This document shows positions 9,477 to 61,597 of a stretch of 64,000 nt of DNA, piece by piece (the stretch's first letter is position 1; every line of letters starts with the position of its first letter). This stretch comes from an uncultured bacterium (lineage in GTDB: Bacteria > Bdellovibrionota_C > UBA2361 > CALJRW01), in the NCBI GenBank assembly GCA_937976335.1, contig CALJRW010000025.1, positions 7,103 to 71,102 on the forward strand, read 5' to 3'. Below the pieces are notes generated by a model that worked only from the letters and a program-made list of their open reading frames with translations, was not told where the DNA came from and did no database searches. A program made the translations under genes and the position numbers.

Positions 9477-10637
9477 ATGCATAATAATTATGAATTTTTA
9501 AGTTCATACTCGGCAAACTCAAGCAAAAGACCAACCTTTGCAGAAGTAAATTTAAAAGTCATTCAGGAAAATTATCAAGTCATTAAAAAACATGTTGCTC
9601 CTTCAAAGGTTATGGCAGTGTTAAAGGCCAATGCATATGGCCACGGTATTGTACCGGTCGCAAAGCATTTAGAATCTTTTGGAGCAGACTACTTTGGAAT
9701 TAGCCTACTAGAAGAAGGTATTCTTTTAAGAAAAGCTGGAATTAAAACTCCAATTTTAGTATTTGGCGGAATTAACTACCAACAAATTGATGAATTTATT
9801 AAACATGACCTAACTATCACTGCCACGTCAGATCAAAAACTTTTAAATATAGAAAAAGCTGCAAGAAAACTAAGTAAAAAAGCTAAAGTACATATACAAT
9901 TTGATATTGGTATGAACCGTGTTGGGTTTAGACCTGATAAGATTGTAGAAATTTTTCAACTAGTAAATTCTTTAGAAAATATTAAAGTTGAAGGACTCTA
10001 CTCACACTTTAGTGAATCTGAATCTGAGGATTTAAACGAAACTAGAAAACAGTTAAAAAAGTTTAACTCTGCAATAAACAAGCTAAAAGAAAATAAAATA
10101 TCACTACCACCTATTTTACACATTTCTAATTCAGGCTCAATCTACCAACTACCCGAAGCTAATTTTGATTGCGTTAGATTAGGTTCCGCTCTTTACGGCT
10201 ACGAACCAGCAATGCATCTAAAAAACAAATTAGCTATCAAACCCGCCTTAACCTGGAAATCTAAGATAATATACTTTAAGGTTATACCAGCTGGAGCTAA
10301 AGTAAGTTATGGCTCTACTTGGACCGCAAAAGAAAAAACTAGAATTGTCACTATCCCTGTTGGTTACGGAGATGGCTACCCGCTTGCTCTATCGAATAAA
10401 GGAAAAGTAATTATTAAAAATAAAACTTATGAAATAGTCGGCAAAGTCTGTATGGATCAAATTTTAGTTAATATTAATTGGGATGAAGCTTTTAATGGAG
10501 ATGAAGTCATTTTACTCGGCAGCTCAGAAGCTCATGAAATTAATGCTTGGGATATCGCTAAGAACACTAGCAATAATCCTAGAGAAGTGTTGTGCGCTAT
10601 TAGTGCTCGGGTTCCAAGGGTTTATATTGAGGACTAA
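9477..10637 (+). CDS. alr: Alanine racemase
   Basis: PLP-binding motif VLKANAYGHG near the N-terminus. ~386 aa with typical two-domain length. Immediately follows dxs with a 4-nt gap. Confidence 0.88.
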   Translation: MHNNYEFLSSYSANSSKRPTFAEVNLKVIQENYQVIKKHVAPSKVMAVLKANAYGHGIVPVAKHLESFGADYFGISLLEEGILLRKAGIKTPILVFGGINYQQIDEFIKHDLTITATSDQKLLNIEKAARKLSKKAKVHIQFDIGMNRVGFRPDKIVEIFQLVNSLENIKVEGLYSHFSESESEDLNETRKQLKKFNSAINKLKENKISLPPILHISNSGSIYQLPEANFDCVRLGSALYGYEPAMHLKNKLAIKPALTWKSKIIYFKVIPAGAKVSYGSTWTAKEKTRIVTIPVGYGDGYPLALSNKGKVIIKNKTYEIVGKVCMDQILVNINWDEAFNGDEVILLGSSEAHEINAWDIAKNTSNNPREVLCAISARVPRVYIED

Positions 10638-10770
10638 AATCAAACTCCTAGATTAGGCTTATTGCCCAAAAAAAGTTAAACTTTCAAAAAAATCTTAAAC
10701 ACTTAAAACTATTGCCTTTTTTCTCTCCATTTTAAAGGATCAATCCCCTAACACTTGCAGATTAGTTTAT

Positions 10771-57143: not shown

Positions 57144-57506
57144 TTATTTTTTCAGGGATAGAACATAAGCATAAATGTTTGCAATATCTTCATCTGTCAC
57201 ATCAGCTTGTGCAGGCATAAGAGCATTCAAACCAACTGCGGCCCCACCCTCTTTTACTAACTTAGTAAATTTAGCTAAATCTGTAGCAAACTTAAATTCA
57301 TCTTTTTGAAAATTTCTTGGTTTCATTCCTTCAGGTAAAGCAGCTCCAACTGGACCATCTCCTGCTCCAGTTTCACCGTGACAGGTAACACATAGCTTTA
57401 CATATGAATCCTTACCTTTGGCTTTATCAGCCTCTGCTGACAAAGAACTGCTAGAAAATGTTAATAATAAAAGGGCCACTATTTTCAGTATTTTTTTCAT
57501 AAACAA
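57144..57506 (-). CDS. Small soluble c-type cytochrome (class I)
   Basis: Signal peptide. Heme-binding CVTCHG (CxxCH). Distal Met region NALMPAQ. 120 aa. Confidence 0.85.
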   Translation of the reverse strand: MFMKKILKIVALLLLTFSSSSLSAEADKAKGKDSYVKLCVTCHGETGAGDGPVGAALPEGMKPRNFQKDEFKFATDLAKFTKLVKEGGAAVGLNALMPAQADVTDEDIANIYAYVLSLKK

Positions 57507-57617
57507 AACCTAAACTATAGAAATAAATAGATCAAGAGCTAGGAAGAATGAATATTTTGTAATTTAGAACCAAAATATAATGTCTTGCATCTAACATTTA
57601 AGAAGACTAAAAAATTA

Positions 57618-57806
57618 GTCTTTATGGGTTTGTCGGAAAATAGAATTCGTCGCGAGAAAAAAGATTTTTGAGTTAAAGGTTGAAAAAATGAAAATAAAAA
57701 ACGCAGGCGTATCAGTAGGATACCTTGAGTATTTTTCTTTTCATTTTTTTAATCTTTAGCCAAAAAGCTTTTTTTGTAGCAGAATTCTATTTTCCGACAG
57801 ACCCTT
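57618..57806. repeat. Inverted-repeat-bounded ~190-bp element (MITE-like) with nested internal palindrome
   Basis: GGGTTTGTCGGAAAATAGAATTC ... GAATTCTATTTTCCGACAGACCC (23-nt arms, 1 mismatch). Internal GAAAAAATGAAAATAAAAA / TTTTTCTTTTCATTTTTTT. The 5' arm region AATAGAATTCGTCGCGAGAAAAAA recurs at 1125-1148. Confidence 0.75.
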
Positions 57807-57846
57807 TATGTCGGATTTATGAAGGTTAAAAAATCGAGAGGCGTTA

Positions 57847-58254
57847 ATGGACAAATATACATATCAAGAAGAAAGCGAGAAAGATGTAGAAAAATTTTTA
57901 TCAACTGCTATGGACTTAGATTTTGCAGGTCTTATCTGGGAACCTGAGATTGGGGATGAAGTTGCTCAAAGAAATGCACCTCAAAACATATCCATTTTAA
58001 TTGATCCTGAGGGAATGGCACTAGCTGAACTACGTTCAACATACGTATGGCTTCCAAATACAGAACAAATCATTGCTCAACTTGAAGCTAAGCAGGCTGT
58101 TCTTTTTCACGCTGGATTAGAGCTAGAAGATTCAACTACATGTTATAAAACTTTTATACAGACACCAATTGGCCCTATCCAATCAAAAGCTACAACCTTA
58201 AGAACTGCAATGGCGCTTTCATTGTTACAGGTTATTGCTGGCGGGGTGCATTAG
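57847..58254 (+). CDS. Hypothetical protein (135 aa)
   Basis: The ORF has a balanced, acidic composition. No motif recognised. RBS GAGAGG 7 nt upstream. Confidence 0.5.
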   Translation: MDKYTYQEESEKDVEKFLSTAMDLDFAGLIWEPEIGDEVAQRNAPQNISILIDPEGMALAELRSTYVWLPNTEQIIAQLEAKQAVLFHAGLELEDSTTCYKTFIQTPIGPIQSKATTLRTAMALSLLQVIAGGVH

Positions 58255-58365
58255 AATAAGAGTCCTTAGCTATTATTTACTAGAGTTAAAATTAGAAAGT
58301 TTGATCTGAAAAAATTTAATTTTAAATCTATATCAAAAAAAATTAAAATTAAATTATAAATTCAT

Positions 58366-58400
58366 TGACTAGAAAAAATAACACGTGTAGTATTACAATT
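58366..58400 (+). promoter_or_regulatory. Candidate sigma70-type promoter followed by a ~250-nt leader upstream of the 58648 operon
   Basis: TTGACT - 17 nt - TAGTAT. The downstream leader contains a GC-rich segment GGCGGCTCATACACGGCGCCATCGCGCTTAACGCGC that stands out from the AT-rich surroundings. Confidence 0.35.
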
Positions 58401-58647
58401 AATGAGCAATTTATCTTTAACAATTATAACTTTTTTAGCTAAACCTTTAGCATATACACAAGCTTATAGATTGGCGGCTCATACACGGCGCCATCGCGCT
58501 TAACGCGCATAATATTTTTCTATCAACACAATCGTAATTTATTTTTTTTCTGTGCAAGTTCGTATTGTTTAGCTTGTACTTGTTCAGAATTTCACAAAAC
58601 GCTTAAGAAAAAAAGTATTCGTAGGCGTTTAACTTAAGGAGAAAAAC

Positions 58648-59769
58648 ATGCCCGGAGATATTAATTATTTTATGGCAAAGTTGACTGCGGAACAAATGAC
58701 TCCTAACAAGTCAAATAAAATCAGTCTTAGTCAATTAGCAATTGAACTTTATAAAACTAACAATCCAGATCTTTCAGACAGAATCAAGCAATCGAACACA
58801 GAAAGCCTCGATTCTCTCTGGCAAAAAAAAGGAACTGGTTCAAGGCTAGTACTAGCAGAAGTAAATGAGCAAATACTCAAAACAAAAGAAAAAGTAAGTG
58901 TTTTAGGTGGAATTTGCTCAATTGCAAAAGGGGATGAGCCTTTTTTAAGAGAGAAAAAAGGTCAGTGGGATATTAATGACTTAAATAACTGGATAAAAAG
59001 TTGGTACCCAAGACTTGATCAAGTAATTGATTGTGTCGGCGTACCACCAAAAGGCACTGGCAAGGTTTTATATGTCTGTGAAGATTCTATCTGGGGACTT
59101 AAATTAGCTAAATGGCTTGATATTCCTCAAGAAGAAACTATAGCCCTACTTAAGAAAGTTCATGAAGAGCAAGGAGAAGCCTGCATATTAAATTGGTTTC
59201 AAGCTCAAGGATATAGAGGAGAAGTTAAAGTTGTCTATACTTCAGATTTAGAAAAAAGTTTGGAAGTTGGCCTTTCAAGTTGGGAAAGAATTATGAAAAC
59301 TAAATTCAGGAAAAAAGATCGTCCTGGAGCTAAGGTTGAACTAATGTACACGCCTTTTTGGTTAGACATACTCGGTGAAACAGAGCCAGCTATTATATAT
59401 GAACCAGTTGATCACATTCAATTTGATTCCTATAGATATCCAGAAACTTCTAACTGGGAAGCAACTAATGCTTTCGGTGATCCAAATGGTTACTGTGATA
59501 ATTTAGGCTATTTAGGATTTTTTCCTTCTTGGTCATCCGAAGGAGCAACTAGGAATTTAAGTTTGGAAAAAGTTCCAAATTTAGCTAACTGGGATTCATT
59601 TGAAATTGCTACTCCAGATCTTAGCTTCTATATTTCCTCTCTCTTAACTGAAGAGTATATAGACTATCAGTATAGAGAAACAAAAAATGCAATAGAACTC
59701 AGGAAGTACATAGGAAACGTAATGAGAAAAATTTACTCCAATGGAGGTACAAGAAATGAAAAAAGTTAA
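58648..59769 (+). CDS. Hypothetical 373-aa protein, first gene of a two-gene operon with DUF917
   Basis: Good RBS (AAGGAG). Conserved-looking Cys/Trp-rich core (VIDCVGVPPKGTGKVLYVCEDSIWGLKLAKWLDIP, YTPFWLDILGETEPAIIYEP). No known motif recognised. Confidence 0.6.
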   Translation: MPGDINYFMAKLTAEQMTPNKSNKISLSQLAIELYKTNNPDLSDRIKQSNTESLDSLWQKKGTGSRLVLAEVNEQILKTKEKVSVLGGICSIAKGDEPFLREKKGQWDINDLNNWIKSWYPRLDQVIDCVGVPPKGTGKVLYVCEDSIWGLKLAKWLDIPQEETIALLKKVHEEQGEACILNWFQAQGYRGEVKVVYTSDLEKSLEVGLSSWERIMKTKFRKKDRPGAKVELMYTPFWLDILGETEPAIIYEPVDHIQFDSYRYPETSNWEATNAFGDPNGYCDNLGYLGFFPSWSSEGATRNLSLEKVPNLANWDSFEIATPDLSFYISSLLTEEYIDYQYRETKNAIELRKYIGNVMRKIYSNGGTRNEKS

Positions 59770-60775
59770 TATTAACGACCTTGTTGTTGGTAGCACTTTC
59801 TTTGGAACAGGGGGAGGAGGGTCCCCTATTTTTGCTCATAAATACCTAAAAAAACTTATTCTAGAGGGCGATTTACCTGATTTAAAAGCTATTGAAGATT
59901 TTCCTAAAAACTCTCTTTTTGTTTCTGGCTTTGGAGTAGGCAATTTAGCTCAAAACGATTCAACAAAATCTTTAATTAAAAAGTGTGTTAATGAACTACA
60001 AGAGTATTTAAAGCAAAAGATAACCGGAGTGATCCCAGTTGAAATTGGACCACTTAGTATCAATGATGCTTTTGAACTTGCAGCTTGCATTGAAGTACCA
60101 GTAGTTGATGCAGATGTAGTCGGTGGACGTAGCGCACCTGAGGTATTTCTAGAAACAATTACTCTGTTTAACATACCGAGAACCCCTTCCGTTGTTGCTA
60201 ATACTAAGGGAGATACTGCTCTACTAATTGAAACTATGTCTTACAAACAAGAAGAAAAATTTTATAGAGATTTCTCTAAACTTAATAACTGCACTGCTTA
60301 CGTACTTGGCTATCCTTTATCAAAAAAGCAGATCCAAAAAACTTGTGAACAAAAAACTGTTACTACAGCTATTAAAATTGGCAATCTCTTAAATCAAAAT
60401 CAGATGCAAGAAGCTTTAGAACTTATAAATGGTATTAAACTGTATGAAGGTGTGGTTACTAATATAAAAGAAATAGATAACTCAGGTTTTACAGAAAAGT
60501 ATATTTATCTAGAAGGAGACACCTTTAAAGCAAAACTTTACATAAAAAATGAAAACTTAGTTTTTTGGTTAAACGAAGAACCAATATTAACATGCCCTGA
60601 TTTAATAATACTATGTAGCTCAGATGGAAAAGCAATATACAATACTGACATTAAATTAGGAGAAAATATATCTGTAATTGGAGCACCTGCTAGAAAATTG
60701 TGGAGAACTGAGGCAGGGCTCAAGCTATTTAGTCCTAAAAAATTTGGGTTTAGCTTTGATCCAGTATTACTCTAG
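59741..60775 (+). CDS. DUF917-family protein (hydantoinase-like fold, function unknown)
   Basis: N-terminal NINDLVVGSTFFGTGGGGSP glycine-rich loop followed by IPVEIGP...VVDADVVGGRSAPE, the characteristic DUF917 pattern. Overlaps the upstream gene by 29 nt. Confidence 0.55.
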   Translation: MEVQEMKKVNINDLVVGSTFFGTGGGGSPIFAHKYLKKLILEGDLPDLKAIEDFPKNSLFVSGFGVGNLAQNDSTKSLIKKCVNELQEYLKQKITGVIPVEIGPLSINDAFELAACIEVPVVDADVVGGRSAPEVFLETITLFNIPRTPSVVANTKGDTALLIETMSYKQEEKFYRDFSKLNNCTAYVLGYPLSKKQIQKTCEQKTVTTAIKIGNLLNQNQMQEALELINGIKLYEGVVTNIKEIDNSGFTEKYIYLEGDTFKAKLYIKNENLVFWLNEEPILTCPDLIILCSSDGKAIYNTDIKLGENISVIGAPARKLWRTEAGLKLFSPKKFGFSFDPVLL

Positions 60776-60826: not shown

Positions 60827-61597
60827 CTACCAATACTTCTCTAAATGCAAATTACCAGGATCTCTCTTCTTGTGTTCCTTAAATCCAGCCTCAGCGAATC
60901 TCACTTCTAAATCCTCAATCATAGCAGGATTACCACAAAGCATAATGTGATCAGTTTTGGGATTAACTTCTATTTCGTCAAAAAATTCTTGAACATAACC
61001 CTTTCTCCCTTCCCAAGTATCATCTGGCCTACTAACTGTTTTAAGATATTTAAAATGACTATATTCTTTTTCTAAGTTTTCTAATTCTTCGTCATATGCA
61101 AAATCTTGCTTATATCTCACTCCATTTATAAGTGTAACTTTATTCATTTTAGATAAAACTCGCCCTTCTCTTAGCATTGAAATAAAAGGAGCGATTCCAG
61201 TACCTGTTGAAACAAAATAGACATTTGAAGCATCTGGAACACCATCAAGATTAAAAGCACCAATTGGCTTTCTTCCTATAAAGAGCCTTTCTTCTTTTTC
61301 CAAGAGAGATAATCTCGGAGATAAAACTCCATCATTAACAACAGCAACGTAAAATTCATAAAAATCTTTTTGATTTGGCGCAGATCCGATAGAGTAGCTT
61401 CTTTTTATAATTTTATCATCTTTGGGTGGATTTTCTTCTTCACCAAGACGTTCCGGCCATTGGTAATCTCCTGGAACCCCTAGAGCAATATACTGGCCAG
61501 GTAGAAAATCAGGAATCTCTGTATCTGGCTTGACCTTTAAAATAAATAGATTTTCAGTTATTAATATCTTATCAACTATTTTTGCATTTAATGACAT
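60827..61597 (-). CDS. fpr: Ferredoxin-NADP(+) reductase (bacterial Fpr-type)
   Basis: FAD-binding RSYSIGSAP. NADP-binding GTGIAPFISM. C-terminal LEKYW-type aromatic terminus. 256 aa. Confidence 0.85.
   Translation of the reverse strand: MSLNAKIVDKILITENLFILKVKPDTEIPDFLPGQYIALGVPGDYQWPERLGEEENPPKDDKIIKRSYSIGSAPNQKDFYEFYVAVVNDGVLSPRLSLLEKEERLFIGRKPIGAFNLDGVPDASNVYFVSTGTGIAPFISMLREGRVLSKMNKVTLINGVRYKQDFAYDEELENLEKEYSHFKYLKTVSRPDDTWEGRKGYVQEFFDEIEVNPKTDHIMLCGNPAMIEDLEVRFAEAGFKEHKKRDPGNLHLEKYW

Follow-up and report, generated by a model that had tools for sequence, protein, structure and literature searches.

A predicted class Ic aminoacyl-tRNA synthetase fold without HIGH or KMSKS, coupled to a DUF917 partner in an uncultured Bdellovibrionota bacterium

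Introduction

Two overlapping genes at positions 58648 to 60775 of a 64,000-nucleotide (nt) stretch of contig CALJRW010000025.1 (positions 7,103 to 71,102; the whole stretch is hereafter the window), from an uncultured bacterium of the Bdellovibrionota_C, constitute a translationally coupled two-enzyme module. The first encodes a 373-amino-acid (aa) protein that, on predicted models, represents a new family with the fold of the class Ic aminoacyl-tRNA synthetases (aaRS), TrpRS/TyrRS-like, without a sequence-level link to them; the second encodes its DUF917 partner. With this fixed partner the 373-aa protein would be an interesting new variant among aaRS-derived enzymes, and the best reading of the pair would be that the two enzymes together process a substrate derived from an aminoacyl group or a dipeptide. 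The features concerned are:

58648-59769, + strand: 373-aa aaRS-like gene, predicted class Ic aaRS fold, without HIGH or KMSKS; Cys90 codon at 58915-58917
59756-60775, + strand: DUF917 (S-Me-THD-fold) gene, 339 aa from its likely start; the longest open reading frame (ORF) is 59741-60775, 344 aa
59743-59769, + strand: coupling junction, where the 3' end of the aaRS-like gene (stop codon ending at 59769) encloses GGAGG (59743-59747) and the DUF917 ATG (59756)

The original prediction for this DNA, made from its letters, had described three ORFs, at 57847-58254, 58648-59769 and 59741-60775, and all three were confirmed.

Family and predicted fold of the 373-aa protein

As had been anticipated, the 373-aa protein could not be placed in any described sequence family: no Pfam (E ≤ 0.1), NCBIfam, PADLOC or PDB sequence match was obtained, and a defence-system reading of the locus was dropped, PADLOC having given no meaningful match. 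The expectation that profile searches would not lead to a well-known enzyme family therefore held at the level of sequence; at the level of fold the protein is a predicted class Ic synthetase derivative. The family is rare as judged from sequence searches, with 17 homologues among 5.8 billion clustered proteins and, in an exhaustive profile search of 1.84 billion proteins, 96 representatives at E ≤ 0.001 (29 at E ≤ 1e-30). Ten distant members (390-516 aa) were scanned and nine had no Pfam domain; the tenth distant match, a 681-aa fn3-domain protein, was matched through short repeated stretches only and was regarded as spurious. The family occurs in Patescibacteria, Dadabacteria, Bdellovibrionota and a probable archaeon, the last (locus L012) being a contig that may be archaeal from its gene content (e.g. 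a 335-aa adenylosuccinate synthase). Its members are acidic to neutral, with a median isoelectric point (pI) of 6.2.

The AlphaFold2 model of the 373-aa protein, built on a 17-sequence alignment (pLDDT 86.8, pTM 0.87), has the class I Rossmann-fold topology and the C-terminal helical domain of TrpRS/TyrRS. In Foldseek, TrpRS/TyrRS rank first (E 6e-4, probability 1.00) and cyclodipeptide synthases (CDPSs) next, PP-loop NAD synthetases being also listed at low probability; 272 residues of the model align to full-length TrpRS versus about 177 to CDPSs. The anticodon-domain-like part is the least conserved and has the lowest model confidence. At the sequence level a 56-sequence profile retrieved no aaRS from the PDB sequences at E ≤ 10, hhalign against two TyrRS sequences gave a probability of at most 0.14%, and no link to AlbC or MjTyrRS was obtained either.

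Conserved residues and the cyclodipeptide synthase register

Motif conservation was derived from 56 sequences with a mean column identity of 20%, down to 14% identity. Residues G87, G88, C90, Q125 and E145 are invariant; D124, G131, Y234, L242, E252, P253, N314 and N331 are conserved in at least 90%, and position 256 is His in 49 sequences, Tyr in five and Lys in two. Further family motifs are PRxDQ, (Y/V)(V/I)xEDS, V(Y/F)(T/D)S(D/E), MYTxxW, EPxxH and G.(T/S)R.L. The position of HIGH reads GGxC-x-(L/I)-x-(T/S)-(G/A)-(D/E), with no conserved His across the 56 sequences, and the stretch equivalent to KMSKS reads G-x-(T/S)-R-x-L, in which R302 (37 Arg and six Lys among the 56) is possibly a lone remnant of that motif. 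The 373-aa protein cannot be a canonical aminoacyl-adenylate-forming synthetase.

Loss of both motifs would also be expected of a catalytically dead synthetase that the DUF917 enzyme retains as a purely structural or regulatory subunit, and the strict adjacency and translational coupling of the two genes described below suggest a stoichiometric complex. However, C90, Q125, E145 and E252 (D124, Y234 and H256 nearly so) are kept at 14-20% identity, a pattern typical of an active site, and a sub-clade of the family, treated in the next section, functions without DUF917 in a different gene cluster. This scaffold-only reading is less likely than catalysis, and we hold it to be quite improbable.

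Some of the conserved residues may have counterparts in the CDPSs. In AlbC, G35 lies in strand beta3 and superposes on G34 of MjTyrRS, and the beta3-alpha2 loop carries the catalytic S37; the helix that precedes the next strand bears Y178 and E182, and the loop that follows this strand bears Y202 (PMC3105412). According to DSSP assignment of the 373-aa model, the first core strand spans residues 84-89 and includes G87-G88, the loop after it opens with C90, and a helix follows from residue 94. The invariant Gly-Gly-x-Cys loop directly follows the first beta strand, the place of the acyl-enzyme nucleophile of the CDPS Gly-x-Ser loop, and G88-I-C90 stands in the same secondary-structure register as that loop, with Cys instead of Ser and the match being by register only. 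From the order of secondary-structure elements, C90 would correspond to AlbC S37, Y234 to Y178 and H256 to Y202/H203, the AlbC sequence and residue numbers having been checked. Y234 is present in 51 of the 56 sequences; the position four residues after it is Trp (42) or Tyr (11) and never Glu, and the Y-x-x-x-E arrangement of the CDPSs is thus absent. AlbC itself lacks HIGH and KMSKS because it uses aminoacyl-tRNA and not ATP, and its S37C variant still yields a covalent aminoacyl-enzyme intermediate and is reported to retain activity (PMC3105412).

The gene pair and the Lys256/Ser302 sub-clade

The aaRS-like gene has a good ribosome-binding site (AAGGAG, 58636-58641) six bases ahead of its ATG. 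A 29-nt overlap with the DUF917 ORF had been proposed, which holds if the first ATG (59741) is used; from the sequence the most likely start is ATG 59756, because GGAGG lies at 59743-59747, the public gene call is of 339 aa and the homologues begin MK... The overlap is then 14 nt, which still implies translational coupling, so that this part of the claim stands with either start. The junction overlap is 4 nt in loci L001, L011, L012 and L014, and the same order and orientation are found in every comparable locus, bearing out the description of the two genes as a coupled unit.

DUF917 directly follows the aaRS-like gene on the same strand in the window and in L001, L002, L003, L005, L007, L008, L011-L015, L019 and L031. 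The pairing of genes of the His256/Arg302 type with this DUF917 clade is obligate: the two are adjacent in 14 of 14 distinct loci, a count taken over His256/Arg302-type genes with downstream DNA and in which the loci are not phylogenetically independent. Conservation of the neighbourhood, raised as a check on the pair, is thereby established. Pair loci were found from the aaRS-like side (L001, from Dadabacteria, L002, L003/L004, L005, L007, L008, L011 and L012) and from the DUF917 side (L013, from Magasanikbacteria, L014 and L015), where the upstream ORFs were confirmed as homologous to the 373-aa family by local profile search; a metagenome scan added L019 and L031. The outcome was the same from either starting side. 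As to a third conserved partner gene, the candidates were rejected, the upstream ORFs at other loci being unrelated to each other and to the 135-aa ORF of the window.

Seven loci (L024, L026-L030 and L033) carry instead a sub-clade with E-(A/S)-x-x-K256 and S302, versus E-P-x-x-H256 and R302 in the remainder. In none of the seven was DUF917 present on the retrieved DNA, which reaches about 1 to 6 kb downstream of the gene. With DUF917 in 14 of 14 loci of the His/Arg type and 0 of 7 of the Lys/Ser type, the state of the active site co-varies with the partner, and this co-variation of two residues near the predicted active site is striking. The Lys-type gene belongs to a conserved cluster, together with a truncated gene resembling class I LysRS (HAGN, KMGKSKGN), a 368-aa gene, a nucleoside 2-deoxyribosyltransferase-like gene and a convergent S66 (LdcA/MccF-like) peptidase gene, sometimes with HMGL-like and ABC-F genes. 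From its gene content this looks like a small biosynthetic or self-resistance cluster. The Lys-type clusters are located as follows:

L024, 860-5370: Lys-type cluster
L028, 3320-8070: Lys-type cluster
L026, L027, L029, L030 and L033: further Lys-type clusters

The DUF917 partner

The 339/344-aa protein has both Pfam domains of its fold, S-Me-THD_N and S-Me-THD_C, above the gathering score, and the fold of CV_3147 (2o3i). The glycine-rich loop pointed out in the original prediction is present as FFGTGGGGSP, and its four glycines are invariant in the family. The accompanying remark that DUF917 has no established function is outdated, the domain being now divided into the two S-Me-THD domains, with two thiohydantoin desulfurases as NCBIfam equivalogs. 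The protein of the window scores far below these two equivalogs, with 46.2 bits against a cut-off of 450 and 38.1 bits against a cut-off of 440. Its homologues form a tight clade at 40-49% identity and a second tier at 34-39% that is still paired, ordinary DUF917s being at 30% identity or less. Since the family-wide invariant residues (GGGG, E96, D118, D120, R125, E167, N265 and E266) are kept, the DUF917 partner is probably catalytically competent, as far as can be judged from its residues.

The predicted pI of the DUF917s in the partner clade is bimodal, many of the Patescibacteria type being at 9.3-10.3 and others at 4.4-5.8, with 5.8 for the protein of the window; ordinary DUF917s are at 4.6-5.2, and the bimodality may simply mirror proteome composition. 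In L007, from a metagenome-assembled genome labelled Pseudomonadota, a second, degraded DUF917 copy (two fragments, 9896-10697) lies directly downstream of the intact one.

The distant DUF917s (≤ 30% identity) are found with Hydantoinase_A, Opp/Dpp transporters, Asp/Glu racemase, and nitroreductase plus DUF6092 (cyclodipeptide-oxidase-like). In L016 (3446-9133) Hydantoinase_A overlaps the first of three tandem DUF917 paralogues, with nitroreductase and DUF6092 after them and an Opp-type ABC transporter before. These contexts agree with the published enrichment of DUF917 in cyclodipeptide-oxidase clusters (bioRxiv 10.1101/2023.09.25.559410); a literature search on DUF917 and thiohydantoin desulfurase gave nothing relevant beyond the cyclodipeptide oxidase work.

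The contexts of the ordinary DUF917s give rise to the main alternative, an ATP-dependent ring opening in which the aaRS-like HUP-fold protein replaces Hydantoinase_A as the nucleotide-using subunit for DUF917. The carbonyl of a lactam, hydantoin or diketopiperazine would be adenylated or phosphorylated, DUF917 would hydrolyse the activated ring and peptidases, whose genes recur near the pair, would finish the salvage. Many DUF917 genes follow Hydantoinase_A, an ATP-dependent protein of the 5-oxoprolinase/hydantoinase type, and in L016 it holds the same position and orientation, beside the transporter. HUP-class folds generally bind nucleotides, which the low-probability Foldseek matches to PP-loop NAD synthetases recall, GGxC resembles the SGGxDS of the PP-loop, and H256 and R302, which co-vary with the presence of DUF917, would lie, by topology, in the regions that bind the ribose and phosphates of ATP in TyrRS. 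On the other hand, HIGH and KMSKS are both gone, with an acidic TGD in place of HIGH, and it is not obvious what a pure kinase or adenylase would need the invariant Cys for. To our knowledge, the characterised DUF917 enzymes (thiohydantoin desulfurases, ergothioneine catabolism) are described as acting without an ATP-dependent partner. Moreover, the CDPSs lost the same motifs on abandoning ATP (PMC3105412). We regard the ATP-dependent reading as unlikely, although it is the one that competes most seriously with covalent catalysis.

Genes recurring beside the pair

PepQ-like M24 genes lie within a few kb of the pair in five loci (L003, L005, L008, L014 and L015), M42 genes directly downstream of it in L005, L008 and L011, and an M29-like gene directly downstream in L014. 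Genes of the S66 family are found in nine loci; in L019 one is convergent after DUF917, and others adjoin the Lys-type genes.

Genes of translation (HisRS, TyrRS, MnmA, EF-P and tRNAs) are also near the pair in several loci. They would accord with a tRNA-directed function, in which the aaRS-like protein binds tRNA or another RNA as the specificity subunit and DUF917 hydrolyses a modified base (e.g. by thio removal) or an aminoacyl group. The longer alignment to TrpRS than to CDPSs indicates that a region beyond the catalytic core is apparently kept, and the named DUF917 enzymes, to go by their NCBIfam names, hydrolyse C=S or C-SCH3 on a five-membered ring, a reaction transferable to thiolated bases. 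Nevertheless, the family is acidic to neutral, its anticodon-domain-like part is the one least conserved and modelled with lowest confidence, neighbours of this kind are expected by chance in small genomes, and 96 representatives in 1.8 billion proteins are too few for a core tRNA function. This reading is also less likely than action on an aminoacyl- or dipeptide-derived substrate, and we consider it improbable.

In two related genomes a canonical TyrRS gene (L007, 2776-4035; L009, 4448-5707) precedes the aaRS-like gene by 2-3 kb, probably a coincidence of synteny.

A model for the two-enzyme module

Taking the predicted fold, the invariant residues and the obligate partner together, we propose, tentatively and with rather less than even confidence, that Cys90 acts covalently, as the nucleophile does in CDPSs, on an aminoacyl or dipeptidyl substrate, and that DUF917 then hydrolyses the cyclic or imidate product, feeding peptidases. 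In the model, the 373-aa protein would bind an aminoacyl or dipeptidyl group in the former amino-acid pocket, the donor being an already activated molecule, e.g. aminoacyl-tRNA, or a cyclic peptide. Catalysis would proceed covalently through Cys90 with His256 and Glu252 as candidate helpers, and Tyr234 would take the substrate-positioning role of AlbC Tyr178. The DUF917 partner, the only named members of whose fold hydrolyse thiohydantoin-type rings, would then hydrolyse the cyclic or imidate-type product, and the linear products would pass to the aminopeptidases or dipeptidases that recur beside the pair.

Several observations weigh against this model. The fold comes from predicted models and a 17-sequence alignment, with no sequence-level link to aaRS or CDPS, and the equivalence of Cys90 and Ser37 rests on secondary-structure register and not on a measured superposition on 3oqv or 1j1u. 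The position of Glu182, four residues after the Tyr, is Trp or Tyr, so that the contact with the alpha-amino group is not conserved; the family is not basic and thus gives no electrostatic hint of tRNA binding; and the GGxC loop, in its likeness to a degenerate PP-loop (SGGxDS), would point to nucleotide binding. In about half of the loci no peptidase gene is found near the pair, and in the window no M24, M42, M29 or S66 gene lies within 6 kb of it. Finally, many of the host genomes are tiny, and therefore any neighbour is likely to be a housekeeping gene.

A bolder version of covalent catalysis, which we think doubtful, would see in the pair an ancient unrecognised system, mainly of minimal-genome Patescibacteria with a small number of further lineages, in which TrpRS/TyrRS-derived thioester chemistry through Cys-His(-Glu) is combined with opening or trimming of a heterocycle by DUF917. 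The chemistry could there be aminoacyl-tRNA-dependent, as in the cyclodipeptide synthases.

The region upstream of the pair

The original prediction had placed ahead of the pair a TTGACT-17-TAGTAT promoter and a leader of about 250 nt with a GC-rich, hairpin-like segment, and had remarked that such leaders often contain riboswitches or attenuators. The elements concerned are:

58255-58647, + strand: intergenic region upstream of the pair, 393 nt, AT-rich, holding promoter-like hexamers and the GC-rich 36-mer
58473-58508, no strand assigned: GC-rich 36-mer, a 69% GC compositional outlier

The TTGACT-17-TAGTAT sequence is indeed present (58365-58393), but sigma-70-like sites are no commoner in the AT-rich upstream region than in shuffled sequence (10 observed versus 12.0 ± 3.6 expected), and neither the promoter nor the terminator scan of the region gave counts above those of shuffled sequence. 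Since the match is at chance frequency, the leader of about 250 nt is also unproven. The description of the GC-rich segment as compositionally alien proved correct: at 69% GC versus 33% overall, it is the most GC-rich of the 63,965 36-nt windows in the 64 kb and unique there, and it holds GGCGCC and several GCGC/CGCG sites. Its hairpin-like character was not borne out: the stem is just 4 bp long and the fold is not significant (z = -1.7 for the + strand, -1.3 for the - strand).

A riboswitch or attenuator of the operon in this leader, GC-rich segment included, would be in keeping with the length of the intergenic region (393 nt), with the strongest GC outlier in 64 kb and with the fold of the 406-nt stretch 58255-58660 (leader plus start codon), which has z = -2.0 in the sense and -0.5 in the antisense direction, 4 of 100 shuffles folding as well in the sense direction. 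Yet a permissive Rfam scan of 57400-58800 gave no match at E ≤ 10 within 58255-58647, sub-segments of the leader reach only z = -1.3 to -1.8 (-1.8 for the one nearest the start codon), neither they nor the whole leader folding significantly, promoter-like matches are no more than chance would give, no known cis-regulatory RNA is found upstream of the pair in 12 other loci, and five other lineages have a YerC/TrpR-like gene directly upstream instead. The nearest homologue of the 373-aa protein is 42% identical, leaving no close relative for covariation in the leader, and the only other assembly carrying the locus (L006) is identical to the window and therefore gives no comparative information. 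The riboswitch is not supported, and we give it very little credence; the upstream intergenic region appears to be an ordinary AT-rich spacer.

Small ORFs in the leader are of only 23-36 aa, unconserved and without ribosome-binding sites. The leader DNA has no match in plasmids, and viral contigs hold no exact copy of the 3' 22 nt of the 36-mer (58487-58508). A dif-like reading of ...CGCGCATAA... in the GC-rich segment was discarded, the match being not above chance and accompanied by no GC-skew switch.

In five lineages, though not in the window, a gene for a small DNA-binding protein related to TrpR (YerC/YecD) lies directly upstream of the aaRS-like gene:

L003, 4594-4938: YerC/YecD-like gene
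L010, 7538-7870: YerC/YecD-like gene
L014, 4261-4575: YerC/YecD-like gene
L019, 5382-5732: YerC/YecD-like gene
L036, 207-527: YerC/YecD-like gene

Where any control is conserved, these genes suggest that it is protein-mediated, and the YerC-like protein may be a regulator dedicated to the aaRS-like gene. In this arrangement a TrpR-like protein stands next to a TrpRS-like fold.

Other features around the pair

In the window the pair is flanked by a c-type cytochrome gene, the 135-aa ORF and a ferredoxin-NADP reductase-like gene. The 135-aa ORF, which the original prediction counted in the gene set, is:

57847-58254, + strand: 135-aa ORF, conserved small protein

It encodes a real conserved protein, with 21 homologues at 49-60% identity and a Pfam domain in none of them, but a homologue is absent from the other 14 pair loci searched (L001-L005 and L007-L015, L006 being the window's own sequence). 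The gene is apparently a neighbour and not a member of the module.

An imperfect palindrome of about 200 nt (57612-57818), with arms 57612-57668/57762-57818 and 57652-57700/57732-57780, lies in the spacer from which the c-type cytochrome gene (57144-57506, - strand) and the 135-aa ORF diverge. Its core folds with -51 kcal/mol (z = -7.8; none of 200 shuffles as stable) and it is unique in the window. All microRNA-like chance matches to Rfam fall on this palindrome and are due to it.

On the other side, the ferredoxin-NADP reductase-like gene (FAD_binding_6 plus NAD_binding_1; 60827-61597, - strand) is convergent with the end of DUF917, with 51 nt between the stops; the scan of this gap gave no terminator-like site.

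Significance and comparison with known systems

Each recruitment of a class I synthetase scaffold to another chemistry (cyclodipeptide synthases, MshC/BshC, SbzA) has opened up a field of biosynthesis. The 373-aa family would count as a third such lineage within the TrpRS/TyrRS branch, with its own motif set and an invariant cysteine, and detectable by structure prediction only. If the thioester chemistry were true, it would represent a second, independent recruitment of a class Ic scaffold to non-ribosomal peptide or heterocycle chemistry, and would for the first time place a DUF917 clade in a functional context other than thiohydantoin catabolism. The Lys-type sub-clade, with His256 replaced by Lys, Arg302 by Ser and the partners swapped, provides a built-in control and marks the residues to mutate. 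The pair thus offers a concrete route to function for part of the large and poorly understood DUF917 family, and for conserved "hypothetical" genes of the Patescibacteria, whose metabolism is mostly inferred from losses. As regards annotation, the 373-aa gene should drop the term "hypothetical" and the leader should not be called a riboswitch.

Enzymes derived from synthetases such as SbzA, AcmF, MshC, BshC and GluQRS mostly keep recognisable aaRS signatures and sites for ATP or aminoacyl-tRNA, and we know of no report of a Cys loop or a DUF917 partner in any of them. A 2026 review of aaRS-like and aminoacyl-tRNA-dependent enzymes lists AcmF, SbzA, CDPSs, GNAT-fold and LanB-like enzymes, and nothing resembling the 373-aa family (PMC12945691). 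From the class Ic TrpRS/TyrRS themselves the family differs by an identity of 7-12% and by the absence of HIGH, KMSKS and Pfam tRNA-synt_1b.

The DUF917 of the window shares with the S-methyl thiohydantoin and thiohydantoin desulfurases both Pfam domains, the 2o3i fold, the GGGG loop and the acidic residues, but it is far below the equivalog cut-offs and belongs to a separate clade with its own fixed partner. In the clusters of Hydantoinase_A and DUF917, as in the pair, DUF917 is directly downstream of, and overlaps, a larger partner gene, in a context of peptides or heterocycles. The partner there is, however, an ASKHA-fold ATPase and not an aaRS-fold protein, and the DUF917s, 30% identical or less, are often in tandem.

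A close parallel is found in the CDPSs (AlbC, Rv2275, YvmC). Both have lost HIGH and KMSKS. By secondary-structure register, each would also have a small nucleophilic residue one position removed from a conserved Gly that closes the first strand (G-x-S in the CDPSs, G-x-C in the 373-aa family), a conserved Tyr on the helix before the fourth strand and a His or Tyr in the loop following it (PMC3105412). Nonetheless, the 373-aa family has neither sequence similarity nor a Pfam match to CDPSs, its Cys replaces the Ser, the Glu of Y-x-x-x-E is Trp or Tyr, and Q125 and E145 are additional invariant residues. Moreover, a DUF917 protein is its obligate partner, where CDPSs have tailoring oxidases or methyltransferases. 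Actinobacteria and Firmicutes are the typical hosts of CDPS gene clusters, whereas the 373-aa family is distributed among Patescibacteria, Dadabacteria, Bdellovibrionota and an archaeal-looking contig.

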